Assembly: GCA_040757655.1 (NCBI GenBank)
Contig: JBFLWV010000010.1
Location: 1 to 62,587 of the forward strand
Direction: 5' to 3'
Origin: Patescibacteria group bacterium
GTDB lineage: Bacteria; Patescibacteriota; Patescibacteriia; 2-02-FULL-49-11
Length of the DNA stretch: 62,587 bases
This document shows positions 26,942 through 41,050 of the stretch, piece after piece. Position 1 is the stretch's first letter. Each line of letters starts with the position of its first letter. The notes below the pieces were generated by a model that worked only from the letters and a program-made list of their open reading frames with translations, was not told the origin of the DNA and made no database searches. Position numbers and translations under genes: made by a program.

Positions 26942-28873
26942 TTATTGCTGTTGTGTTGCTGTTTGCGCCCCTCCCGCAGCAGAGGGCGCCCCTTCCTGCT
27001 CCATCGTCTGGTCGAACTGGCGTTTGGCTTCCTCAATCTCCAAAAGCTGCCGAGGATCTGACGTGATGATCTGGTCCTCGGTGTAGGACGCAACCACCTT
27101 GATGGCCGCGTGCTTATTGCCCGCGAAGAAAATACCCTCTCCCACCCCGCTCTCGAGAAGCAGATACCGCTCCCCTTGCGTGAGGAGGAACACTTTTGCC
27201 ACCGCGTCAATGGCAGAAGGCGACTGGCGCAAGAGTATCTGGAGCCCGGAATTGTTCACAATCGCCTGCCCATAAGGGGATCCCAAGAAGTCATTCACAT
27301 CCTGCGTAATGGTGGAGAGGCCCAGGTAGTATTTGCGGCAGCGCTTTGCGAGGGCGTAGATGAATTTTGCAGAATCCTCGTGCTGCATAAGCCACCATGC
27401 CTCGTCAATGACAAGGATGCGTTTTTTAATGCTTGAGCGCACCACGTTCCAGATGAAATTGATGATGGTGTAGATTGCCATTGGACGGAGCTCGTCTTCC
27501 AAATCGCGCACCGAGAATACGACCAGCTGGTTATTGAGGTTAATGTTCGTGCGGTTATTGAGGAGCCCTGCAAACGTACCTTCAGTGTATTTTTTAAGTC
27601 GCAGCGCGATATCGTCGCCGCCTTCCATGCCGCGCAGGATATCCTCAAGGTCAGAGAGCACCGGCATTTCCGCGTGCGAAAGGTCCGAAGAGGGGGTAAT
27701 GTCTTTCTTGGCGTAGGTCTCAAGGATGGCGCGGTCGAGGAGCGAGTCCTCTTGGTGCGTGAGCTCCCCGATCATAATCCGGGTAAGCCCTTTGAGGGTA
27801 ATCACCGCGGAGCGGATGATATCGCCTGCCTTCGTGTCTTCCCCAACGGCACGGGGCAGGTCAAACGGGTTGATTTTGCTGTCAGAATTCAAGGATATGT
27901 TAATATAGGTGCCGCCCACCGCTTGCGCGAGGTATTGGTACTCGCGCTCCGGATCAATGATGATGACTTCCGTGCCGAACATGAGCGAGCGAAGGATCTC
28001 AAGCTTGATGGCATACGACTTGCCTGCGCCCGAGGTGGCAAACACCACCATGTTCGCATTTGGGAGCGAGAAACGGTCAAAAAGGACCAGGGAATTATTG
28101 TGGCGGTTGATGCCATAGAGCACCCCATGGTCGCTTGAGAGCTCCGCGGAAACAAAAGGGAATGACGATGCGGCAGGGGACGTATTCATGTTGAAACTTA
28201 CCCCCAGCTCATCAATGCCAAGGGGAAGCGTTGAATTGAACCCCTGCTCTGACTGCCAGGTGGCGCGCCGCGTAAACACGAGCTTTGATCCAATGAGGCT
28301 CTCCACCCGTTCAGTAAGCTTATTAAGCTCCTTAATGTCCGATGCGTACAAAGTAAGGTACAATGCACATTGGAAGAAGTGCTCTACCCCTTGAGTAATG
28401 TCATCACGCAGCTTTTCAATGTCTTGAAGGGCGGTCTCGCGTACCGGGTCGCGCGGAGCTCCTTTTTCCCGGTCTGCGGCAAGCTGCGCTTCCAGCACGC
28501 CTACTTTGTTCCTTAATTGCTTTAAGATGATTTCAGGATCAATGGGGTAAAAAAACATTCCCACGTCAAAGGTGGCGCTTAAGTCAATGATCGGCTCAAA
28601 CCATCCAACCGACACATAGCGAGGATAGGTGACCACGAACATCGTGCGCAGGAACATCCCCCCCAGTTCCAGATGGTCTGGCTGCACCCGAAGGGAAGAG
28701 GGCGCGATGAAGTCGCGGATGGACACTACCCCTTCCCGGTAGACTTTTTCCGCGCGCAGGAGCTCTTCTGAAGGAAGAGCGCCCTTTTCCACCCGCGCCG
28801 CCTCTCCTTGCGCTCTTGATACCGCTGAAGGAGCCTTTGGGGCGGACGATTTTTTCTTTAAGAAGTTGAACAT
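26942..28873 (-). CDS. virB4: VirB4/TrbE/PrgJ-family T4SS ATPase
   Basis: Walker A FATSGAGKSYAIK and Walker B ILVIDEAWWLM, with an N-terminal VirB4-type domain. The ATG at 28873 is preferred. Confidence 0.85.
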   Translation of the reverse strand: MFNFLKKKSSAPKAPSAVSRAQGEAARVEKGALPSEELLRAEKVYREGVVSIRDFIAPSSLRVQPDHLELGGMFLRTMFVVTYPRYVSVGWFEPIIDLSATFDVGMFFYPIDPEIILKQLRNKVGVLEAQLAADREKGAPRDPVRETALQDIEKLRDDITQGVEHFFQCALYLTLYASDIKELNKLTERVESLIGSKLVFTRRATWQSEQGFNSTLPLGIDELGVSFNMNTSPAASSFPFVSAELSSDHGVLYGINRHNNSLVLFDRFSLPNANMVVFATSGAGKSYAIKLEILRSLMFGTEVIIIDPEREYQYLAQAVGGTYINISLNSDSKINPFDLPRAVGEDTKAGDIIRSAVITLKGLTRIMIGELTHQEDSLLDRAILETYAKKDITPSSDLSHAEMPVLSDLEDILRGMEGGDDIALRLKKYTEGTFAGLLNNRTNINLNNQLVVFSVRDLEDELRPMAIYTIINFIWNVVRSSIKKRILVIDEAWWLMQHEDSAKFIYALAKRCRKYYLGLSTITQDVNDFLGSPYGQAIVNNSGLQILLRQSPSAIDAVAKVFLLTQGERYLLLESGVGEGIFFAGNKHAAIKVVASYTEDQIITSDPRQLLEIEEAKRQFDQTMEQEGAPSAAGGAQTATQQQ

Positions 28874-28887
28874 GAACTTTAATGTAA

Positions 28888-28972
28888 ACCCCAAAATCCA
28901 AAAACCAAAATGATAATCAAGAATTTATAAATTTTGGGCTATCATTTTGCATTTTGGGATTTGGATTTTAAA
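28888..28972. repeat. Miniature palindromic element (caaaatgata ... tatcattttg core)
   Basis: Left arm ccccaaaatccaaaaaccaaaatgataatc; right arm gctatcattttgcattttgggatttggatttt. Confidence 0.8.
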
Positions 28973-28981
28973 TTAGTACCG

Positions 28982-29668
28982 TTATTCTTCCACCTCCATC
29001 TTCTCCATCGCGGGCGCTCTTTCGCTCACCATCACCTCTGGATTGTAGGTCGCATAGAGAAGTTCTATAAGCGACTGGGTATCAAGCTCCACCGCATTCA
29101 AACCCATCGCCTGCAGGCCGCCTCGCAGGTGCGCCACATTCCTATCAAGTGATAAGCGGTACTGCCGGAATTTCTCTTCCTTCATTTTAATAAGTTTGGT
29201 AAGTGAGAATGTTTCGGAGAGTCTGGTAACGAGACTCTTCTGTTTATCAGAAACCGGATTATAGGGAACCGCGACATAGAACCGCTTCGACACAATATCG
29301 CCAAGGCTCACGAGCTCCGTAATGAATTGCCGGTAATCTGCCATCTGAATGCGGAGAAGGTCATTGGACTGCTCCCGTTCGCGCTGTTTCAGGTCGTCAA
29401 GGTACGTATCAATGAGAAAGCGGCGCGACTGAATGATGATTTGCACGGAAAAGGAAAGTGAATTGAGAAACGAAATGTATCCCTGGACCGTGGCCGCCTG
29501 CTCTTCGGGAGATTTGAGCGCAAAGTTCACTGAGGACACGAGGAGTACTGCGCGGAGGCTCCCATCCTTGAGGATAATCGTATTATCACGAACCTCCGCA
29601 ATCGGCAAATACCGCTGGGTTGATGGCGGATGAGTCTTTTTCTTACTGACGCCTGGTTGGATGGACAT
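28982..29668 (-). CDS. Hypothetical T4SS-associated protein resembling a stand-alone VirB4 N-terminal domain
   Basis: The segment LPIAEVRDNTIILKDGSLRAVLLVSSVNFALKSPEEQAATVQGY resembles the N-domain start of VirB4/TraC-type ATPases. It has no Walker motifs. The ATG at 29668 follows aaggaagg. Confidence 0.45.
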   Translation of the reverse strand: MSIQPGVSKKKTHPPSTQRYLPIAEVRDNTIILKDGSLRAVLLVSSVNFALKSPEEQAATVQGYISFLNSLSFSVQIIIQSRRFLIDTYLDDLKQREREQSNDLLRIQMADYRQFITELVSLGDIVSKRFYVAVPYNPVSDKQKSLVTRLSETFSLTKLIKMKEEKFRQYRLSLDRNVAHLRGGLQAMGLNAVELDTQSLIELLYATYNPEVMVSERAPAMEKMEVEE

Positions 29669-29682
29669 ACCTTCCTTAATGT

Positions 29683-29792
29683 AAAAACCAAAATCCAAAA
29701 ATCAAAATGATAGATGATAATCCAAAATATTTGAGGTTATCGTCCCGAAGGGACTCTTTCATTTTGGATTTTGGGATTTGCATTTTGCATTA
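29683..29792. repeat. Palindromic intergenic element with gtccc-gaa-gggac core
   Basis: Arms aaaaccaaaatccaaaaatcaaaatgata and tttcattttggattttgggatttgcattttgcatt. Core at 29742..29754. Confidence 0.8.
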
Positions 29793-30218
29793 TTTATCTT
29801 GCTCTGCCTCATACACCCCTCCCGTATCCACTTCAAGCGCAAGCTCCGCAAGACGGGCGTGACTAAAGCGTCGATGAGGCTGTTCAAGTACGGCAGATAC
29901 CTCCTCGCCCTGCATGGTCGCTTCAAGACTCTCCGCATCAGATTTGCTCCACACCCGCAATGAGGGTTTCATCCCGAGCTGAAACACAGAAAGAAGAAAA
30001 TGATGAAAATACCTTCCATTTACTTTATAAAAGCCAAAGAGCCCCACCAGTCCAAACGTGACGAGCGCAATGAGGATAAACAGAGAGATGTCAAACAGCT
30101 TGTAGCATATCACAAGGAAGAGGCCGGCCACGATCATTATGATGAACTGCCGCGTGGTAATCGGCCCTAAGATTTTATCTTCCACATCGATAAATTGTGG
30201 CACGACGAATTGATCCAT
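29790..30218 (-). CDS. PrgI-family (VirB3-like) small T4SS membrane protein
   Basis: The N-terminus FIDVEDKILGPITTRQFIIMIVAGLF followed by two TM helices is the PrgI-family pattern. The ATG at 30218 follows aaggaagg. Confidence 0.6.
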   Translation of the reverse strand: MDQFVVPQFIDVEDKILGPITTRQFIIMIVAGLFLVICYKLFDISLFILIALVTFGLVGLFGFYKVNGRYFHHFLLSVFQLGMKPSLRVWSKSDAESLEATMQGEEVSAVLEQPHRRFSHARLAELALEVDTGGVYEAEQDK

Positions 30219-30232
30219 ACCTTCCTTAATGT

Positions 30233-30345
30233 AAACTCCAAAATTCAAAACCCAAAATGATATATTATAATTTAAAATATTTGAGGGGATCGTCCCGACC
30301 GCGTCGGGACACCTTCATTTTGATTTTTAGGATTTGATTTTTGCA
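30233..30345. repeat. Palindromic intergenic element with gtcccgac-cgc-gtcgggac core
   Basis: Core at 30291..30309. Arms ctccaaaattcaaaacccaaaatgata and ccttcattttgatttttaggatttgatttttgcatt. Confidence 0.8.
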
Positions 30346-30351
30346 TTACTA

Positions 30352-31650
30352 CTAGTATGCCAGTTTTCGGTTGATGTCCGCAATAGCGTCAAATTCATCT
30401 TTGGTAAACACCGGATGCTTTTTCTTCACGTGCTCCTCGATCACGTGCGCCACGTCCATCCCTTTCTCGAGGCTTTCTGCGCCGACCACCAGATACAGCT
30501 GATGCAAGGGTGATGATTTCCAGGCGAGCACTCCCTCGTTTCTCTTCAAAAGCGATTCATCAGCGAGCAATTCTATTTTTTCCACCACCTTTGCGGCCAT
30601 CATGGGCGCCGTGGCGCCTAAACGACGGAAATCTTCAATCGTCATAGTTTTGAGTTCGTCAATTGGCCCCATCACCCTCCGAAAGGTGCGCACATCCGTG
30701 ACCGTCGAACGTAATTCTGCCGCTGGCGCCTTCGGAGGCGCGACAGGAGGAGAGACTTTGACTGGAGGCGTAACCGCTTGACGAGCCACTTCTGTTATGG
30801 CTTCTGGCTTCTGGCTTCTGGCTTCTGGCTTATAGGATGGATGCACAAACGGCCGCGGTTCCTTGACCACAAGTGACGGCACCTCAAATGGCTTTGCAGG
30901 AGCCGCAGCAACACGAGCAATCGCAGGTCCTCCCCCTTCCTTCTGTGGGACACGCAAAGGCGCGGGAGCTTCTTCTTCTGGTTTCACTGGAGTCACTTTC
31001 ACTCCTCGCACTTCATCTTCAAACGCGCCTCGTCGCTCCTCTATAAACTGGAGAAGCGTCTGCGCGGCTGCATTATCCATATTCACACCTCCCAATTCCC
31101 GCGGCCGCATCAACACCTCTTTTGTTTCCATGAGATCCCTTACGTCTCTGAGTCGAGAAACAATGACCCGCACAAGCCGAGGACGAATCTCTGGGTCAAC
31201 CGGGAGGTTTGCTGTCTTCAAAATTTCATCTGCCTTCTTATTCACGAGCTCGTGGATCTTCTCAATGCGCTCTTTATCGCCCGCCTGACGGTACCCGTCA
31301 ATTTCCTCCTCATCGCCCACATCTACATAATAACGGGCAACGGGCTTCAGAGCCTGCCTAGCGGCCACAGGCGGAGATGCGCGTGCGGGCACGTCTGCAC
31401 GCGCGGGAGGCGTGGTCGGCGATTTCACCGGTGCGCCAACCGGGAGAGGAGCACGTTCGAGACCTATGTGCTTTACGCGATCATTATGAGATGCGCGCGA
31501 CGCATCCCAATCCTCCAGTTTGCCGTTCTTGAGCACCTTGAAACGCCCGTCCGCATCACGGACGACCAGCTCATTCATTGGATTGTGCACCACAGAATCT
31601 GCCATACCGTTACTATGTGTTAAAACTGGTTGCAGTGAACATTTTATCAT
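30352..31650 (-). CDS. Hypothetical Pro/Ala-rich protein containing a 7-bp tandem repeat
   Basis: 432 aa. Its start overlaps the upstream stop in an ATGA arrangement (31647-31650). No motif recognised. Confidence 0.6.
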   Translation of the reverse strand: MIKCSLQPVLTHSNGMADSVVHNPMNELVVRDADGRFKVLKNGKLEDWDASRASHNDRVKHIGLERAPLPVGAPVKSPTTPPARADVPARASPPVAARQALKPVARYYVDVGDEEEIDGYRQAGDKERIEKIHELVNKKADEILKTANLPVDPEIRPRLVRVIVSRLRDVRDLMETKEVLMRPRELGGVNMDNAAAQTLLQFIEERRGAFEDEVRGVKVTPVKPEEEAPAPLRVPQKEGGGPAIARVAAAPAKPFEVPSLVVKEPRPFVHPSYKPEARSQKPEAITEVARQAVTPPVKVSPPVAPPKAPAAELRSTVTDVRTFRRVMGPIDELKTMTIEDFRRLGATAPMMAAKVVEKIELLADESLLKRNEGVLAWKSSPLHQLYLVVGAESLEKGMDVAHVIEEHVKKKHPVFTKDEFDAIADINRKLAY

Positions 31651-32420
31651 GTTTTGAACTTCTCACGAATCCGTGCCTGCTCAACCTGGTACCATTTCTG
31701 CTCGTCATCTAATTTCTTTTCCAGCGATTCAACCAATTTCCTCATCAACCAGTCGGTTTTATTGATGAGTTCCAGGAATATCTCGCATGTCAAGTCTTCC
31801 GGTTGAATCTTGGCTAAAGGAGAATAAAGGACAGTTAAAGGACGATACGTGAAATTATTATCCTTTATCATCCTATATCTTCCTTTATCACCCTGTAACG
31901 CGCGATGAAATTCCCCAAGGTCAGTGCCGATGCTCTCAAAACTCGATCCTGGTCTAGATCTTAAAAACCCATCCTCGGTCATCTCGCGCACATCGCCTTT
32001 CACTTCTTCCAAACTGCCTTGACTGTAACTGATGAAATCGAGATACTCCCGCGTCGTCGCTCGCTTGTAGCCCTCCTCAATGTTCCGCACCACGCTCCTG
32101 GCAGCGTCATCAACCTGTGCTTTCCTGCGATATTCAGATTTCGGCAACGCATCAGTCGTGAGACGAACCAAATAGCGCAGCAATACAGCGTTCGACCACT
32201 GCACCAGGTAGCGATATCCTTCCGGATCCTGCCATACCCGTGATCGCTGTTGCGGACGCTCTGGCTGCGATAATTCCCATAGGGTTTTCATCCGCATGAA
32301 GGCTCCTACTTCGCTAGAATTCAATCCCGCCAAATCACAATGAGGAAAATCATTTGGTGCTTGTGACCAATCGGGATTATGGTCATCAAATTTTGCTATA
32401 AACTTTTTCACGTCCGACAT
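31647..32420 (-). CDS. Extended four-helix-bundle-family protein (257 aa)
   Basis: The core DDAARSVVRNIEEGYKRATTREYLDFISYSQGSLEEVKGDV matches the family motif (aNIaEG...f..fl.iA.gSl.E), with extra N- and C-terminal regions. Confidence 0.65.
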   Translation of the reverse strand: MSDVKKFIAKFDDHNPDWSQAPNDFPHCDLAGLNSSEVGAFMRMKTLWELSQPERPQQRSRVWQDPEGYRYLVQWSNAVLLRYLVRLTTDALPKSEYRRKAQVDDAARSVVRNIEEGYKRATTREYLDFISYSQGSLEEVKGDVREMTEDGFLRSRPGSSFESIGTDLGEFHRALQGDKGRYRMIKDNNFTYRPLTVLYSPLAKIQPEDLTCEIFLELINKTDWLMRKLVESLEKKLDDEQKWYQVEQARIREKFKT

Positions 32421-32483
32421 ATCGAGCCTTTATTTACGTTCAACCATCCTTTATCCTCCTCTTTCTTCCTTTATATCATCCAA

Positions 32484-32558
32484 CCACCTGAACTCACCCG
32501 TCTCTAAATCTCCATATGCTAAATGAGAATATTCAAGTTCGCCTGCCTTGCGGCATTC
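32484..32558 (-). pseudogene. Copy 4 (most diverged) of the 3' coding end of the 474-aa gene
   Basis: Translates ECRKAGELEYSHLAYGDLETGEFRW, versus ECRKAGDEEYAHLAYGDLETGEFKW in the intact gene. Confidence 0.7.
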
Positions 32559-32817
32559 ACCCCGTTAGAGAAAGGAAACGCTTCAAGCGATTTTTAAGAT
32601 ACCGCTTCCCCATCCCAGTCTTCAGATATTTTTCCCGAACTCGCGCATCATGGTCATTAATGCAAGCTTCATAGTAAATCAACTGAAATGGACCCCTGCC
32701 TGTTGTCGATGTTACCTTTCCTTCATTGTGCTCCCTGAAGCGTTTCCGTAGATCGCCCGAAGAACCTGTATACCATTTCCTATCCTTTAAACTTTGCAAA
32801 ACGTACGTATAGACCAT
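32557..32817 (-). CDS. GIY-YIG nuclease superfamily protein (stand-alone, 86 aa)
   Basis: VYTYVL...KWYTGSSGDLRKRFREHNEG is the GIY-(10)-YTG...R..EH signature. Confidence 0.85.
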   Translation of the reverse strand: MVYTYVLQSLKDRKWYTGSSGDLRKRFREHNEGKVTSTTGRGPFQLIYYEACINDHDARVREKYLKTGMGKRYLKNRLKRFLSLTG

Positions 32818-32943
32818 AAACTTACTTCTCTAGCCCGTTAAAACTATTCCTCTTAATGCTCTCTACGCGACAATGTCATAAATAATATATGCCAGATATA
32901 TCTCGTGACTCAGCTCAACTTTTAACGGGCTCTAACGGGGTAA

Positions 32944-33045
32944 ATTCCACTTAAACGTCCCTGTCTCCAAATCCCCCCGCCTAAATCTCTGCAAGAAAAT
33001 TGGGCGGGCGTCGGTTAATTTTTAACGTTCTATCAAAATATGTTT
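32944..33045 (-). pseudogene. Copy 3 of the 3' coding end of the 474-aa gene (tail variant beta)
   Basis: Near-identical to 33693..33795. Translates KHILIER*KLTDARPIFLQRFRRGDLETGTFKWN. Confidence 0.75.
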
Positions 33046-33069
33046 CGGATTATCCACTGTGCCCGTACC

Positions 33070-33165
33070 TTGACAAAAAATTCATACGTGCTATACTTTT
33101 TTTGCCTTGCTAAGGCAAGGCGGAACCAAATTTTCCTCGGGTAACACCGAGGAACTTTTTATTTC
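33070..33165 (+). ncRNA. Predicted ~60-nt transcript (promoter + two hairpins + terminator) convergent on NYN gene 1
   Basis: TTGACA (33070-33075)-16 nt-TATACT (33092-33097). Then hairpin gccttgc-taag-gcaaggc, then ttcctcgg-gtaaca-ccgaggaa followed by ctttttattt. Confidence 0.55.
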
Positions 33166-33677
33166 ATCAACTCAAATTCATTCCGCAGTTTCTTTAAATC
33201 AATAAACTTCGCCTGTTGCACGAGATCCAGTGCGACACTCCCTTTCGTGGACATGACTACGCATCGTTTGCCATGCGCTTTAAGAAATTTGAGTAAAAAT
33301 GCAAAATCGCTGTCACCGGACAATAAAATGAATGACTGATAATCGAGAAGCGTATGAACCGCGTCAATGGTAAGCTCAACATCAAGATTGCCCTTATGGA
33401 ATCCTCCTTCATCGCGCAACTGATCCCTGATAAACTTCACCTTCTTTGTACGAACAGTATACCCTATCAAATCGAGAAAATCGAGAAAACGTCTCTGCTT
33501 ATCCGATGTGGGGTCATACGCGGTATAGAAATAACAGCGATGAAGTTCGGCTTCGCGTGCGAAGTAAACAAGCAACTTTTGAAAATCAATGCGCCAACCA
33601 AGCCTCTTTTGGGAATGATAAATATTAGAGGCATCAATGCATATTATTGTCTTTCCATGAACAAAGGTGGAAATCAT
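33159..33677 (-). CDS. NYN-domain (LabA/DUF88, PIN-like) putative RNase, copy 1
   Basis: Motifs IICIDASNIYH and ILLSGDSDFAFLLKFLKAHGKRCVVMS. The ATG at 33677 lies 11 nt after the stop of tail copy 2. Confidence 0.85.
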   Translation of the reverse strand: MISTFVHGKTIICIDASNIYHSQKRLGWRIDFQKLLVYFAREAELHRCYFYTAYDPTSDKQRRFLDFLDLIGYTVRTKKVKFIRDQLRDEGGFHKGNLDVELTIDAVHTLLDYQSFILLSGDSDFAFLLKFLKAHGKRCVVMSTKGSVALDLVQQAKFIDLKKLRNEFELMK

Positions 33678-33688
33678 AAATACGTTTA

Positions 33689-33952
33689 TTACGCATTCCA
33701 CTTAAACGTCCCGGTCTCCAAATCCCCCCGCCTAAATCTCTGCAAGAAAATTGGGCGGGCGTCGGTTAATTTTTAACGTTCTATCAAAATATGTTTCAAA
33801 AACGCTAAGAAATACTTCGGTGCAGCAGGATCTTTCAAAAATTCCTGCACGGGCGTTGCATGCAACGCCCCTACATTATCCCCTGATTCCTGATTCATAA
33901 TTCTTGATTCCCGCTTCTCAAGTTGATGTCTCCAATACTTCACGAATCGTTC
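33689..33952 (-). pseudogene. Copy 2 of the 3' coding end of the 474-aa gene (constant part + in-frame TAA + tail variant beta)
   Basis: ERFVKYWRHQLEKRESRIMNQESGDNVGALHATPVQEFLKDPAAPKYFLAFLKHILIER*KLTDARPIFLQRFRRGDLETGTFKWNA*. The first roughly 170 bp is close to identical to 35770..35945. Confidence 0.8.
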
Positions 33953-33983
33953 TGGTCGGCTATCCATACACGGATGTCCCCAC

Positions 33984-34068
33984 TTGACAAACATTTACAA
34001 TACTATATACTGTAAATGTGATTTGACTCTGGAGTGCCTTGTAAAAGGCAGCTCCAGATTCTTTTTTA
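33984..34068 (+). ncRNA. Predicted ~50-nt transcript convergent on NYN gene 2
   Basis: TTGACA (33984-33989)-16 nt-TATACT (34006-34011). Then hairpin ctggagtgcc-ttgtaaaa-ggcagctccag followed by attctttttt. Confidence 0.55.
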
Positions 34069-34575
34069 TCTCGCAATTTCCGTCTTAAGTTTCCGAAAAT
34101 CGACAAACTTCGCAACTTCCAACAACTCTCGCGCTATATGACCGCGGGTGGACATCACGATCACTCTTTTCCCTTTTTCCTTCACGCGCTCCAATACCGG
34201 CGCGAAATCACTGTCGCCAGAGACAAGAATAGCCGTATCATAACGATCTGCGAGCTCCATCATCTCTAACGCGAGTTCAATATCAAGGCTTCCCTTCCGT
34301 TTGCTCGTGCCATCACTTGAATTGATTTCCTTAATCACTTTTGTGCGTACGATGTAGCCGTTGATCTCCAGCATGTCCAGAAACTTGCGCTCGCCAACCT
34401 TGTTGTCATTGAATGCTGTGTACGCGAAGCACTTCACCGAAACACCGCACTCATGCTTAAAATACGCCATTAATTTCTCATACCCAACGCTCCATCCGAG
34501 CGTACGTCTCGTGAAAAAGACGTTCGCCACATCAATGAATACGTATACTCGCCCTTGAATGTATTTTGAAATCAT
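34066..34575 (-). CDS. NYN-domain (LabA/DUF88, PIN-like) putative RNase, copy 2
   Basis: Motifs VFIDVANVFF and ILVSGDSDFAPVLERVKEKGKRVIVMS. The ATG at 34575 lies 11 nt after the TGA of tail copy 1. Confidence 0.85.
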   Translation of the reverse strand: MISKYIQGRVYVFIDVANVFFTRRTLGWSVGYEKLMAYFKHECGVSVKCFAYTAFNDNKVGERKFLDMLEINGYIVRTKVIKEINSSDGTSKRKGSLDIELALEMMELADRYDTAILVSGDSDFAPVLERVKEKGKRVIVMSTRGHIARELLEVAKFVDFRKLKTEIAR

Positions 34576-34586
34576 ATCATTTACAT

Positions 34587-34742
34587 TCACGCATTCCACC
34601 TGAATTCTCCCGTTTCCAGATCGCCGTATGCCAAGTGTGCGTACTCCTCATCTCCGGCTTTGCGGCATTCATTGCTTAAGGTCAAAACCGCCAGTTTCGC
34701 GCTTTCTTCAGTTAATTTTAAACGATCAATCGGGATATACCT
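34587..34742 (-). pseudogene. Copy 1 of the 3' coding end of the 474-aa gene (tail variant alpha, last 47 codons)
   Basis: Translates IDRLKLTEESAKLAVLTLSNECRKAGDEEYAHLAYGDLETGEFRWNA*. Near-identical to 35619..35765. Confidence 0.85.
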
Positions 34743-34756
34743 CAAGATTATTAACA

Positions 34757-34846
34757 TTGACAAAAAAAATCATAATGCTATGCTGTCAATGTACCTCCCT
34801 TATCTAAGGCTCTCTCGAGTACAGGTAACGGGGGTGTTTTTATTAT
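34757..34846 (+). ncRNA. Predicted ~55-nt transcript convergent on the DUF3800 gene
   Basis: TTGACA (34757-34762)-16 nt-TATGCT (34779-34784). Then a structured segment ending in gggggtgtttttatt, about 10 nt before the DUF3800 stop. Confidence 0.45.
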
Positions 34847-34855
34847 GAACAGTTC

Positions 34856-35467
34856 TTATAAGTGCAATAATATCTTCTCTTTATTCATGATCATTTCGTG
34901 ATAGTGGGGATCGCCCCGCTCATACTCTCTAAAAATACTCCCCGCAATCATATCTGCTATCTGGATCATCGCATTGTTCCGAGAACGTTGCTGCCTGATT
35001 TTTCTAACCACATTCTTGCTCATATACTGTTTAAGCACCGCATTGAATTCTCGCCGATGGATTTGAGCTGACGCTTCGTCAATGACGAGGACAGATTCAA
35101 CTATCGGCGGATCGTTATCATAAAACAATCTTCTCACTGCTTCGCAGTAGAGCTGATGGGGATGGAACTTCAGTGCTGGCGCGGTAAGTTCACGTTTATC
35201 AACAACGACTGCCTTATAGCGGATTAACCGCTCTGATAACGTACGCAAAAACGCTTCGCGAAATGTACGCTTGCATCGTGAAAACTTAAACTCAAAATCC
35301 TGCGCCAATCGCAATTCCAACCTTAACCTTTCCATTGTAATCTCAATCTCCTTCGCCTCGCATCCAAGAAACACCGCTGCCACTACAAAAAATCTCGAGG
35401 ATCCGCGTTCAAACTTGAAACCACAATCACTTGCTTCGTCTATCCAGAGATATGATATTGTCTCCAT
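34856..35467 (-). CDS. DUF3800-family protein
   Basis: N-terminus YLWIDEASDCGFKFERGSSRFFVVAAVF and C-terminal IQIADMIAGSI are typical DUF3800 motifs. The ATG at 35467 is preferred. Confidence 0.7.
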   Translation of the reverse strand: METISYLWIDEASDCGFKFERGSSRFFVVAAVFLGCEAKEIEITMERLRLELRLAQDFEFKFSRCKRTFREAFLRTLSERLIRYKAVVVDKRELTAPALKFHPHQLYCEAVRRLFYDNDPPIVESVLVIDEASAQIHRREFNAVLKQYMSKNVVRKIRQQRSRNNAMIQIADMIAGSIFREYERGDPHYHEMIMNKEKILLHL

Positions 35468-35618
35468 AATTATAGCACAATAATCTATCTCATATCCTAG
35501 CTGCAATTTCCTTAAGTCATACAAGCATCACTCACTCGCGATCGCGAGTCTTTGATTCCTTTCGGATTTAAGCCCTTCAGACACATGTCTGCGTAAGTCC
35601 GCGCAAGTCCGCGTTTAC

Positions 35619-37043
35619 TCACGCATTCCATTTGAATTCCCCAGTCTCCAGATCGCCGTATGCCAAGTGTGCGTACTCCTCATCTCCGGCTTTGCGGCAT
35701 TCATTGCTTAAGGTCAAAACCGCCAGTTTCGCGCTTTCTTCTGTTAATTTTAAACGATCAATCAAAACATGTTTCAAAAACGCTAAGAAATACTTCGGTG
35801 CGGCAGGATCTTTCAAAAATTCCTGTACGGGCGTTGCATGCAACGCCCCTACATTATCCCCTGATTCCTGATTCATAATTCTTGATTCCCGCTTCTCAAG
35901 TTGATGTTTCCAATACTTCACAAACCTTTCCGACTTGCCAAATGACTGTTTGAGAGACCCACGCCGGGCCAATCGCCAAAGACAAGTCAATACTCCGACT
36001 ATATCACCTTTGTTCACGGCGCTGTAAAACCCATTCAGCTCTTCCTCTTCGTTCGCTCCACTCCCGCCTGCTTGTTCCAACTGCGCCAACGCCGGAGCGA
36101 TCACGGTATCCAAAGTCCATTGCTCATACTTCTTTATCATCTTATTCACCATAAAGTCCCTCTTCGCTTCCCCGCCCAAATTTTCAACAATATCCGCCGG
36201 CGCCTCCTCTCCCAGCGCATGCAAAATCACTTCCCGCATCTCCTGCAATCCTTTCTTAATTTTTACTTCATCAATCTCTTTGATCGGCTCAAATTTCCCT
36301 TCCCGAATTGTTCCCTTTATATCAGACTCATCAATAGGTATCGCATCCTCCATTCCTTCTAGAGTAAGAGACGATTTGAGTAAATGTCCATAAAGGGTAA
36401 TAAGCGTACGTAATTGTTCCTGTTGCTTAGTAGGTAAACGTCGTGCCTGTTCATCGCTGGATAGAAAACTATTGACATCAAGCGCTGTATATATTTTTTT
36501 CCCTAATTTCACAACCACCCGTTGTAACCACTGTCCAATCGTTAAAGCACTATTCATCAACACTCTCTCTCCTAGCAACGGCGCTATCTGACCAAACGGC
36601 TCCTGATTCTTCTCCAATGCTTCCCGTAAAACAACTTTCAGTCGATCACGATCATCTAGAAGCGGGTAAGTGAGAAACCAAGCTTTAACTTTCTCCCAAA
36701 TATCAAACCCCTCGCTCTCAAGCGCCTGAACTAGATGATGCGCAAAGAGATCAATCGCTTCAGTGTCACTCTTCACGGTATGAAATACCGTCCATCGCAA
36801 AATTACCATCATGCGTTGCAACGCGTGATACTGCTCGGGATAACGAATGGCGAACTCAGGAGATGCGTGCAAAAATGCATTTAAATCGTTGAGTAACGCC
36901 GCCGATTCTGCCACATATCCGAAAAACATCATTTCCTCTGCACGTCGCTTCAAACCGTCCAAAAATTCGACGTCACCAAGTTTATCCCCTACTTGCGTAA
37001 GAAGATCCGTTAGAGAAACTGATTTAAGAAACGCTGTACTCAT
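35619..37043 (-). CDS. Hypothetical 474-aa protein whose 3' end is the recurrent cassette boundary
   Basis: Long ORF immediately downstream of the VirB6-like gene. No motif recognised. Confidence 0.7.
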   Translation of the reverse strand: MSTAFLKSVSLTDLLTQVGDKLGDVEFLDGLKRRAEEMMFFGYVAESAALLNDLNAFLHASPEFAIRYPEQYHALQRMMVILRWTVFHTVKSDTEAIDLFAHHLVQALESEGFDIWEKVKAWFLTYPLLDDRDRLKVVLREALEKNQEPFGQIAPLLGERVLMNSALTIGQWLQRVVVKLGKKIYTALDVNSFLSSDEQARRLPTKQQEQLRTLITLYGHLLKSSLTLEGMEDAIPIDESDIKGTIREGKFEPIKEIDEVKIKKGLQEMREVILHALGEEAPADIVENLGGEAKRDFMVNKMIKKYEQWTLDTVIAPALAQLEQAGGSGANEEEELNGFYSAVNKGDIVGVLTCLWRLARRGSLKQSFGKSERFVKYWKHQLEKRESRIMNQESGDNVGALHATPVQEFLKDPAAPKYFLAFLKHVLIDRLKLTEESAKLAVLTLSNECRKAGDEEYAHLAYGDLETGEFKWNA

Positions 37044-40514: not shown

Positions 40515-41050
40515 CATAACAAATCCAAATCTAATCCAAATCCCAAAATCCAAATACCAAAATGATATCTGTGAATCCAAAATTATCGACGGCCTTTCAT
40601 GGTAACGATACTTGCCCCAATAATTCTGGCAAACTCATTAGCCTCGCGAGAGAAGGCTTCAACTTCGTCTCGATGTGAGACGCTCACTGTTTCCTGGAGC
40701 ACCATGAGCCAGTAGATCGTCTCATTGGCTGATTTAAGTGCAATCTCGAAAAAATGAATGTAATCTCTTTTTGAACCTGAACCTTTCGCCTCTACGACGT
40801 TCGCACCAATTGAACCTCCACTGCGGATTACTTGATCGACGATTGACCACAGCAGTCTATTCTCACCTTTAATCCTCTCCCCAAGCTTGATGATATGCAC
40901 GGTGAATTGGATCAACCTTCTGATGAAATCCTTTTTGAATTGTTCTCTATCATTTTGGGATTTGGGATTTGGGTTTTGGATTGGCATAGAGGCTGTGGGG
41001 ATTTGGAATTTTATTTGACATTGGGATTTGGAAATTGGGATTTAATGCGT
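40515..41050 (-). mobile_element. Full-length palindromic element carrying a four-helix-bundle gene
   Basis: Left arm aaatccaaatctaatccaaatcccaaaatccaaataccaaaatgata; right arm tatcattttgggatttgggatttgggttttggatt, plus a second arm set. A miniature derivative lies at 19972..20103. Confidence 0.7.
40583..40987 (-). CDS. Four-helix-bundle protein (23S rRNA IVS-protein family)
   Basis: Motifs QVIRSGGSIGANVVEAKGSGSKRDYIHFFEIALKSANETIYW. The N-terminus MPIQNPNPKSQND is encoded by the repeat arm. Confidence 0.85.
   Translation of the reverse strand: MPIQNPNPKSQNDREQFKKDFIRRLIQFTVHIIKLGERIKGENRLLWSIVDQVIRSGGSIGANVVEAKGSGSKRDYIHFFEIALKSANETIYWLMVLQETVSVSHRDEVEAFSREANEFARIIGASIVTMKGRR

Follow-up and report, generated by a model that had tools for sequence, protein, structure and literature searches.

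A contig of a Patescibacteria group bacterium (JBFLWV010000010.1) was analysed over its whole 62.6-kb length, which we call the window. Its minus strand carries two genes for NYN-domain nucleases and one for a DUF3800 protein, and each of these genes lies tail to tail with a short plus-strand transcription unit that is predicted to yield a structured small RNA (sRNA) of about 50-60 nucleotides (nt). The three units fall within positions 33070-34846 and are numbered 1 to 3 by position. Because homologous cassettes keep the promoter and terminator, we conclude that these are real sRNA genes functionally tied to the nucleases. The nuclease and the sRNA of each module are very probably functional partners, and the module is most likely toxin/antitoxin-like. 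The features of the three modules are as follows.

33070-33097, plus strand: promoter of unit 1, TTGACA-16-TATACT with a TG-extended -10 box, a promoter type kept in homologous loci
33104-33160, plus strand: predicted sRNA 1 of about 57 nt, NYN-1 class, with its start placed from the position of the -10 box
33103-33122, plus strand: hairpin 1 of sRNA 1, with the loop UAAG
Between hairpin 1 and the terminator hairpin, plus strand: linker of sRNA 1, GGAACCAAA
33133-33154, plus strand: terminator hairpin of sRNA 1, followed by a U-run at 33156-33160
33159-33677, minus strand: NYN gene 1, 172 amino acids (aa), PIN-like nuclease, partner of sRNA 1
33984-34011, plus strand: promoter of unit 2, TTGACA-16-TATACT
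34016-34067, plus strand: predicted sRNA 2 of about 52 nt, NYN class A, with the 5' tail GUGAUUUGAC
34028-34058, plus strand: hairpin of sRNA 2 with a bulged G, followed by a U-run at 34062-34067
34066-34575, minus strand: NYN gene 2, 169 aa, partner of sRNA 2
34757-34784, plus strand: promoter of unit 3, TTGACA-16-TATGCT with a TG-extended -10 box
34790-34841, plus strand: predicted sRNA 3 of about 52 nt, with a basal stem at 34792-34836 and a U-run at 34837-34841
34856-35467, minus strand: DUF3800 gene, 203 aa, predicted RNase H-like fold, partner of sRNA 3

The promoter of unit 3 is flanked by an 8-nt inverted repeat (CATTGACA/TGTCAATG), and sRNA 3 carries an internal loop (UAAG/ACA) and an apical helix (GCUC/GAGU). 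The original prediction had described three near-consensus promoters with 16-nt spacers at 33070, 33984 and 34757, each followed by a hairpin and T-run that end at or just before the stop codon of the nuclease gene. The motifs, spacers and coordinates of the promoters are as it gave them. The terminators likewise sit where it placed them, since in units 1 and 2 the U-run reaches into the TAA stop codon of the partner gene (33159-33161 and 34066-34068) and in unit 3 it ends 14 nt short of the DUF3800 stop codon (34856-34858). The overlap between sRNA and open reading frame (ORF) in the window is 0-5 nt. Folding of the three RNAs, one of the checks suggested at that stage, gave -27.6 kcal/mol for unit 1 (z -5.75 versus shuffles), -22.2 kcal/mol for unit 2 (z -5.28) and -18.8 kcal/mol for unit 3 (z -3.15). 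The same source had considered that the hairpins might merely terminate the minus-strand genes. However, none of the three has a U-run on the minus (gene-sense) strand, and the unit 3 region folds at -12.5 kcal/mol on that strand versus -18.8 kcal/mol on the plus strand. Thus, the hairpins are terminators of the plus-strand units and not of the minus-strand genes.

Consensus promoters are scarce in the window, again as had been claimed. Only 17 promoter-like sites on both strands score at least 10/12, and five score at least 11/12, two of which are the promoters of units 1 and 2. The remaining strong sites (9952, 19274, 53413 and others) precede ordinary genes, and no mini-units are present there. 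A generic scan of the surrounding 16 kb found promoter- and terminator-like sites no more often than in shuffled sequence (21 versus 19.8 expected), and therefore the significance of the three units must come from their position and conservation.

Conservation was assessed in 80 genomic loci with NYN relatives and 80 metagenomic loci with DUF3800 relatives, plus the contigs of individual homologues. A strict detector called a unit where an opposite-strand promoter scoring at least 10/12 was accompanied by a hairpin of -8 kcal/mol or lower and a T-run no more than 30 nt from the stop codon. Among homologues with at least 38% identity, convergent units were found at 30 of 47 NYN genes and at 26 of 29 DUF3800 genes, versus one of 528 control ORFs of at least 150 aa in the NYN loci and none of 190 in the DUF3800 loci. 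Several of the misses are technical, for example where the stop codon was misplaced inside the sRNA or the -35 box was slightly weaker. The arrangement is conserved across phyla and is statistically robust. The original prediction held that three such units in the same relative position are unlikely to be chance, and it proposed a search for the promoter and terminator in homologous cassettes; the totals of 56/76 homologous genes versus 1/718 control ORFs bear it out on both counts.

The promoters themselves are well preserved. Among 29 non-redundant NYN loci chosen for a TTGAC[AT] -35 box, the hexamer is exactly TTGACA in all 29, and the 16-nt spacer and the TGn extended -10 box are each found in 23. 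Such near-consensus promoters suggest strong constitutive expression, as expected of a labile antitoxin. A single copy of the sRNA is the rule, with two tandem hairpins in one locus only (L024). In three loci (L013, L015 and L017), the NYN ORF is about 14 codons longer (...IPPPKRGEV-stop) and crosses the sRNA terminator hairpin, so that here the sRNA lies opposite the last codons of the gene, with an ORF overlap of about 40 nt.

The three RNAs had been described as different in sequence, and the alignments place them in three separate structured families. The class A family (unit 2) has an invariant 5' tail motif, GUGAURRCAC, and an invariant lower stem, UCUGGNG/CNCCAGA (alignment A3, 12 sequences). 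A bulged G is usual, the upper stem is variable, and compensatory changes are present in five pairs. A covariance model of this class (R2) scores 66 bits on sRNA 2, itself a training sequence, and recovers three held-out loci (L007 at 57 bits, L010 at 39 and L044 at 38.5), with no further match in the 564 kb of the window and NYN loci. Its 5' tail includes a predicted mini-hairpin (window 34018-34027) whose loop is AUAA, AUAG or AUGA in 11 of the 12 sequences. The loop triplets are thus UAA, UAG or UGA and never UGG, which in so few sequences may be due to chance.

The NYN-1 family (unit 1) is composed of a hairpin with the loop U-A-M-G, a conserved linker, (G)GAACCAAA, and a terminator hairpin. 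Hairpin 1, which is not part of the terminator, covaries at all seven of its pairs (alignment A5). Its cells are paired in 98.4% of cases, a value reached by none of 500 shuffles, whereas shifted registers give 33-46%.

In the DUF3800 family (unit 3), the basal stem is long and is interrupted by a conserved internal loop in which YAAG lies opposite ACA. The apical helix GCUC/GAGU covaries to GCCC/GGGU, and 11 of 15 pairs show compensatory changes (alignment A4, 22 sequences). Many of the pairs are G-U, which would be A-C mismatches on the opposite strand, and thus they fit only the promoter-driven strand. The 5' tail of about 8-10 nt is variable, whereas that of class A is invariant. The corresponding model (R1) scores 61 bits on sRNA 3, itself a training sequence, and gives one match beside each close DUF3800 gene, including the held-out loci L119 and L121, with no further match in the 344 kb of the window and DUF3800 loci.

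Among the loci scanned, no RNA family turned up beside any protein clade but its own. The proteins are only 45-65% identical, yet the RNAs keep their unpaired bases and lower stems without change, and these RNA features are better conserved than the coding sequence next to them. The closest relative of the second NYN module (L182) illustrates this point, as its gene region is 77.5% identical in DNA to that of the window, and its sRNA 5' tail and stem, compared by eye, are the same except for the loop and one A-U to G-U change. Thus, the RNA is under constraint at least equal to that of the protein.

Three other ideas about these RNAs were considered and set aside. Possible sRNA-encoded peptides (a 19-codon AUG frame in unit 3 and, often, AUGUGA in class A) lack an AUG that is kept in homologues. 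A CCUCC-like stem arm might mimic the anti-Shine-Dalgarno sequence of 16S rRNA, but this arm covaries without keeping a fixed sequence. The internal loop of the DUF3800 class gave no convincing match, by inspection, to a sarcin-ricin or kink-turn motif.

The partner proteins belong to known nuclease families. Both NYN genes match PF01936 (E 1.2e-26 for gene 1 and 7.5e-32 for gene 2), and their scores of 111 and 94 bits are far above the cut-off of 24.2. The two proteins are 40% identical to each other. In alignment A1, the acidic active-site residues D15, D98, D121 and D123, given for NYN gene 2, are invariant, and so is N18. The 172-aa gene call of NYN gene 1 is supported by P0184, and the gene call of NYN gene 2 by P0001. 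The searches retrieved 428 and 735 homologues for the two proteins, the larger number being for NYN gene 1 and spread over several phyla. There were no phage matches. The sole match among solved structures is 2QIP, a protein of unknown function.

The DUF3800 gene matches PF12686 (E 1.8e-12, 48.6 bits versus a cut-off of 21), and its 203-aa gene call is supported by P0121. The DE motif (D10 and E11) as well as Q169 and D172 are invariant in alignment A2, in agreement with published motifs (PMC7736814). No match was found for this protein among solved structures, and an RNase H-like fold has been predicted for the family (PMC10910872, PMC7736814). DUF3800 is also an accessory or effector-type nuclease domain of type VII retrons (PMC7736814), and it has been suggested to act together with noncoding RNAs (ncRNAs) (PMC10910872). 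PADLOC returned weak matches to defence candidates, namely PDC-M04A for the DUF3800 protein and NYN and HEC-09 for the NYN proteins. Pfam and PADLOC searches of the partners gave only NYN- or DUF3800-type matches, and none to ToxN/AbiQ, CptN or TenpN.

The three RNA families were compared with the 4227 models of Rfam 15. No match was found in the window at E up to 10, and none to the families in 39 homologous loci at the gathering score or E up to 5. Distant DUF3800 relatives (29-38% identity) carry the DUF3800-IX motif (RF02968, 46-66 bits), which sits convergent beside the stop codon in the same position as the window unit. The DUF3800-linked RNA of the window and those of its close relatives (45-61% identity) differ in structure from these motifs and match no Rfam model. 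The main text of Weinberg et al. 2017 describes eleven unrelated motifs, DUF3800-I to -XI, that accompany DUF3800 genes; several have their own rho-independent terminator, they can lie upstream or downstream of the gene and point either way, and the authors state there that they saw no obvious functional hypothesis (PMC5737381). Given that distant relatives have DUF3800-IX at the corresponding place, the DUF3800 unit represents a new structural type within this known and unexplained kind of RNA. With their two RNA families outside Rfam, the NYN units show that the architecture also accompanies another nuclease fold. No account of NYN-sRNA pairing was found in the literature, and the main text of the 2017 study is silent on NYN (PMC5737381).

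The genomic context of the NYN genes suggests that they depend on their host genes for expression. Most have no Shine-Dalgarno (SD) sequence of their own and no conserved 5' region. An unrelated gene lies upstream, and the NYN gene either overlaps its stop codon or starts 0-25 nt past it. The NYN gene of some loci begins directly after a TGnTATAAT box. A conserved 5' untranslated region (UTR) or SD target upstream of NYN was considered as a candidate site and rejected, because the sequences there share no similarity and in most cases contain no SD sequence. Host genes of NYN-1-type modules include a tyrosine recombinase/integrase gene (L172-174), cysS beside a DNA methyltransferase gene (L175), an Eco57I-like restriction-modification gene (L180) and a split pyruvate phosphate dikinase gene (L189-191). 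In three independent lineages (L177-179, L187-188 and L192-194), a module of this type separates hsdS from hsdR, and the NYN start overlaps the hsdS stop codon in the first two of these. In the third, the NYN gene is followed by a four-helix-bundle (bAvd/23S_rRNA_IVP) gene, which is the same family pair as in the window array. In L177, hsdR starts 102 nt past the NYN stop codon, and by eye the sRNA gene and its promoter occupy most of this gap. Thus, the operon transcript must cross the sRNA gene in the antisense direction. The NYN and DUF3800 copies of the window lie in an array near type IV secretion-like genes and not in a restriction-modification operon.

The array itself (31647-35930, minus strand) is built from repeated fragments of a neighbouring gene. 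The repeats that lie between the modules are the following.

34587-34731, 33695-33952 and 32944-33046, minus strand: direct repeats that copy the end of the 474-aa gene at its 3' side (gene at 35619-37043), repeat families D2, D3 and D5

These direct repeats bracket every module in the window (145 nt at 96% and 103 nt at 99% identity). Altogether there are five copies of the gene end, namely the genuine one (35619-35763), the three listed above and one at 32484-32559. The copies are 71-99% identical, and each ends ...GDLETG(E/T)FKWNA-stop. Every copy is followed by a small gene, in the order DUF3800, NYN, NYN, GIY-YIG (32557-32817) and 23S_rRNA_IVP/four-helix-bundle (31647-32420). The GIY-YIG and four-helix-bundle cassettes have no convergent promoter/terminator unit. 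Six such gene-end fragments are present in the related contig L182, and direct repeats of a host gene end are also seen in L189/190 (126 nt) and L192 (80 nt), at about 81-82% identity. From their sequences, these patterns suggest that small circles bearing a piece of the target gene may have inserted by recombination. Judging from the direct repeats of host gene ends and the position behind host genes, the modules are small mobile cassettes, about 650-750 bp in size, which rely on transcription from their hosts.

Several other features of the region were noted. The 73-aa ORF at 33773-33994 (minus strand) is not an independent gene, as it corresponds to residues ~372-434 of the 474-aa protein plus a variant C-terminal fragment. 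The segment 32818-32945, upstream of the 86-aa GIY-YIG gene, is flanked by a 12-bp inverted repeat (GCCCGTTAAAAC/GTTTTAACGGGC) with its arms about 80 nt apart, and folds with z -3.7 on the plus strand and z -1.6 on the minus strand. Decamer-type repeats (ATCCTTTATC) are located at 31850-31898, inside the 257-aa 23S_rRNA_IVP ORF, and at 32446-32474, just upstream of it. This ORF may be a chimera produced by insertion of the four-helix-bundle cassette.

The detector gave a fourth match in the window, at 30244-30310, which falls in one copy of an intergenic element that recurs between secretion genes. Copies of the element are present at 28869-28998, 29666-29815, 30216-30310, 40521-40603 and 40947-41006, and their neighbours are type IV secretion-like genes, including a PrgI-like gene (29790-30248) and a TraC-like gene (28982-29698). 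The element is made up of short GGATTTTGG-type repeats together with a TATAAT-like box and a hairpin of the form GTCCCGA...GGGAC. The copy detected does not resemble an sRNA unit so much as a region that serves jointly as promoter, 5' UTR and terminator.

How might the two parts of a module work together? It is quite possible, if by no means assured, that the sRNA is the inhibitory, antitoxin-like partner of the nuclease. In each module, a small nuclease gene stands tail to tail with the predicted, separately promoted gene for a structured sRNA of ~50-60 nt. The sRNA would be made constitutively and in excess, and the cognate nuclease would recognise it directly and stay harmless. By analogy with type III systems, the sRNA might act as an RNA antitoxin or pseudo-substrate. 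A restraining role is favoured by the contrast between the strong sRNA promoter and the read-through-dependent nuclease gene, since labile antitoxins typically outpace their toxins in expression in this way. That the protein recognises the RNA, and that pairing is not the whole mechanism, is favoured by the invariant unpaired bases and lower stems, the covarying non-terminator hairpin and the presence of one RNA family per protein clade, and also because DUF3800-linked RNAs elsewhere need not be antisense. Furthermore, the class A 5' motif pairs with its own NYN mRNA (-40 to stop) no better than shuffles do (z ~0), and the best positions are not conserved. This lack of a conserved trans-complement argues against a trans-antisense role and fits protein recognition.

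A second layer of control is likely. Because there is no sense-strand terminator between the gene and the sRNA, the transcript of the nuclease gene or host operon is expected to read through, and it would be fully complementary to the sRNA. The resulting 50-60 bp duplex would permit RNase III-type control, so that antisense regulation similar to that of type I systems would be added to the proposed protein contact. The whole module might function as a compact addiction or abortive-infection cassette that sits behind host genes and is expressed via read-through or translational coupling. Its recurrent site in type I restriction operons recalls the anticodon nuclease PrrC, an analogy that suggests such an abortive-infection or addiction role.

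A number of observations weigh against the proposal that the sRNA restrains its nuclease. Some more distant NYN clades have no sRNA unit, namely those from Chthonomonadales, Ktedonobacterales, Aquificota and Promethearchaeota and a Sinorhizobium plasmid copy. The Sinorhizobium plasmid NYN genes (38% identity) carry no such sRNA. The link to defence islands comes from nine context look-ups rather than a statistical survey. Conservation of the RNA shows constraint and not the direction of the interaction, and it would be just as compatible with an RNA that serves as cofactor, guide, substrate or toxin. The fixed convergent geometry, in which the sRNA abuts the stop codon, is not needed by a pure protein-binding model. 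Finally, a strain-specific DUF3800 gene was scored as essential by transposon sequencing (Tn-seq) in Legionella, amid a list dominated by antitoxins (PMC7811196), which would fit the nuclease as the protective partner.

The best-surviving alternative, which we nevertheless regard as rather unlikely, is a pure cis-antisense mechanism. The sRNA would act only by pairing to the nuclease mRNA, at its 3' end or 3' UTR, without contacting the protein, and would lead to RNase III cleavage or decay, possibly with head-on transcriptional interference. The original prediction pointed this way when it compared the units with type I pairs in the style of bsrG/SR4. The part of that analogy that stands is the convergent layout and the likelihood of read-through pairing. 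Indeed, homologues keep the tail-to-tail layout and place the sRNA terminator at the stop codon, and the ORF of three loci reaches ~14 codons into the sRNA. A missing sense-strand U-run predicts read-through and a perfect duplex, and in operons such as L177 the host mRNA must traverse the sRNA gene to reach hsdR 102 nt on. However, complementarity is automatic in this layout, yet unpaired bases and lower stems remain invariant at 45-65% protein identity, and hairpin 1 of the NYN-1 class covaries at 7/7 pairs. Conserved helices, conserved unpaired nucleotides and clade specificity are not needed by an RNA of this type. In addition, the partners are soluble nucleases of 169-203 aa rather than small hydrophobic peptides, their ORF overlap in the window is the stop codon or nothing, and for DUF3800 RNAs elsewhere both flanks of the gene and both orientations are described in the main text cited above (PMC5737381). 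For these reasons, the specific analogy is not well supported, although the broader toxin-antitoxin idea is a sensible frame.

It is also unlikely that the sRNA is a positive partner, such as a cofactor, scaffold, guide or specificity subunit, that forms a ribonucleoprotein (RNP) enzyme for defence or for spread of the cassette. The RNAs are structured and specific to protein clades, with invariant loops, and the RNase H-like fold of DUF3800 is common to RNA-guided nucleases and comes with a suggested ncRNA partnership (PMC10910872). Mobility of the modules, which are bracketed by direct repeats of the host gene 3' end, would also agree with such an enzyme. However, the RNAs are very short and offer no plausible guide segment, given that the tail is 8-10 nt and variable or, in class A, invariant. 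The sequence predicts no target, and the occurrence of one architecture with two unrelated folds is better explained by a generic restraint than by a specific catalytic RNP.

Reversal of the polarity, in which a harmful sRNA is cleaved by the nuclease as its antidote, would follow the logic of type V or type VIII systems and is very unlikely here. This scenario draws on the essential Legionella DUF3800 gene (PMC7811196), on the near-consensus sRNA promoters and on the pyrimidine-rich, CCUCC-like 5' stem arms of many sRNAs, which resemble an anti-SD sequence. However, these arms are paired and covarying without conservation of sequence. As a rule, the nuclease genes lack an SD sequence or promoter, which would be odd for the antidote to a constitutive toxin. 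The Tn-seq result is a single case that concerns a distant family member, and it could be polar or technical.

More improbable still is that the units are DNA-level elements, for example attC-like recombination sites or the ends of small mobile elements, whose promoters are incidental. Integron cassettes carry, at their 3' ends, attC sites that are imperfect DNA palindromes with R''/R' core sites, and they go with an integron integrase and attI. A cassette array with repeated flanks and the homologue located after a tyrosine-recombinase gene (L172-174) are compatible with this idea, and covarying helices are also expected of structured single-stranded DNA sites. However, TTGACA with 16-17-nt spacing, the TGn -10 box and the U-run after the hairpin are kept in all RNA classes, and the frequent G-U pairs favour an RNA made from the promoter-driven strand. 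Moreover, two cassettes of the array (GIY-YIG and four-helix-bundle) lack the element, and modules also occur singly, outside arrays. Lastly, chance promoters beside ordinary minus-strand gene terminators, which would suit the lack of excess in the generic 16-kb scan, can be dismissed as already refuted by the plus-strand-only U-runs, the contrast of 56/76 homologues with 1/718 controls and the covariation of the RNAs.

If the preferred reading of the sRNA as a restraining partner is extended beyond the window, NYN and DUF3800 modules might perhaps represent a widespread, unrecognised class of mobile nuclease-plus-sRNA elements, in which unrelated nuclease folds are checked, or armed, by a cognate, structured tail-to-tail sRNA of ~50 nt with constitutive expression. 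We put this forward only tentatively. Were it true, the class would constitute a new type of RNA antitoxin or abortive-infection system, and it would provide the function that has been missing since 2017 for DUF3800-linked RNA motifs, which have been described as "curious", and possibly for the drum and skipping-rope motifs. It would be especially abundant in Patescibacteria and recurrent in type I restriction operons, and the same architecture would reach the stand-alone nucleases of NYN/LabA type, which are very common. Such a class would go some way to explaining the frequent insertion of tiny nuclease genes in the reduced genomes of Patescibacteria and in restriction-modification operons, where these genes would be self-stabilising or defensive cassettes and not housekeeping enzymes. 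At least three RNA families are added beyond Rfam. Given that the modules are self-contained and span only ~650-750 bp, work in a surrogate host should be easy.

The modules can be compared with several known systems. Type I toxin-antitoxin pairs such as bsrG/SR4 and txpA/RatA combine a small, usually hydrophobic membrane peptide with a convergent antisense RNA that overlaps the 3' end of its gene. The window units share with them the tail-to-tail layout, a strong promoter and terminator of their own, and the pairing with the 3' part of the partner transcript that is expected if, as is likely, this transcript reads through. However, the partners in the window are nucleases of 172, 169 and 203 aa with an ORF overlap of 0-5 nt, and the RNAs carry conserved sequence and structure beyond what cis-antisense action needs.

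In type III systems, the antitoxin is a set of tandem RNA repeats, encoded upstream of the toxin gene in the same direction, which the toxin itself processes. ToxIN, CptIN and TenpIN, as well as AvcID, resemble the window modules in the logic that we propose, namely direct neutralisation of a nuclease or enzyme toxin by RNA, co-variation of cognate partners, and a link to phage defence and mobile DNA. In contrast, the sRNA of the window is single-copy, downstream, convergent and separately promoted, and the NYN and DUF3800 folds are unrelated to those toxins.

PrrC and RloC are anticodon nucleases that reside as latent RNases in type I restriction-modification operons, and PrrC is silenced by the restriction-modification proteins. 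The NYN-1 homologues located between hsdS and hsdR in three lineages are reminiscent of this arrangement, but they belong to another protein family, and the silencer of PrrC is a protein and not an RNA.

Type VII retrons also couple a DUF3800 nuclease to a noncoding nucleic acid (PMC7736814), although the window units have neither a reverse transcriptase nor an msr/msd-type RNA. The closest counterparts of unit 3 are the DUF3800 motifs. The window RNA fits no curated Rfam model, and the NYN partners of the other two units are PIN-like, whereas unit 3 itself has the hallmarks of these motifs, as it adjoins a PF12686 gene, forms a covarying structure and ends in a 3' intrinsic terminator.

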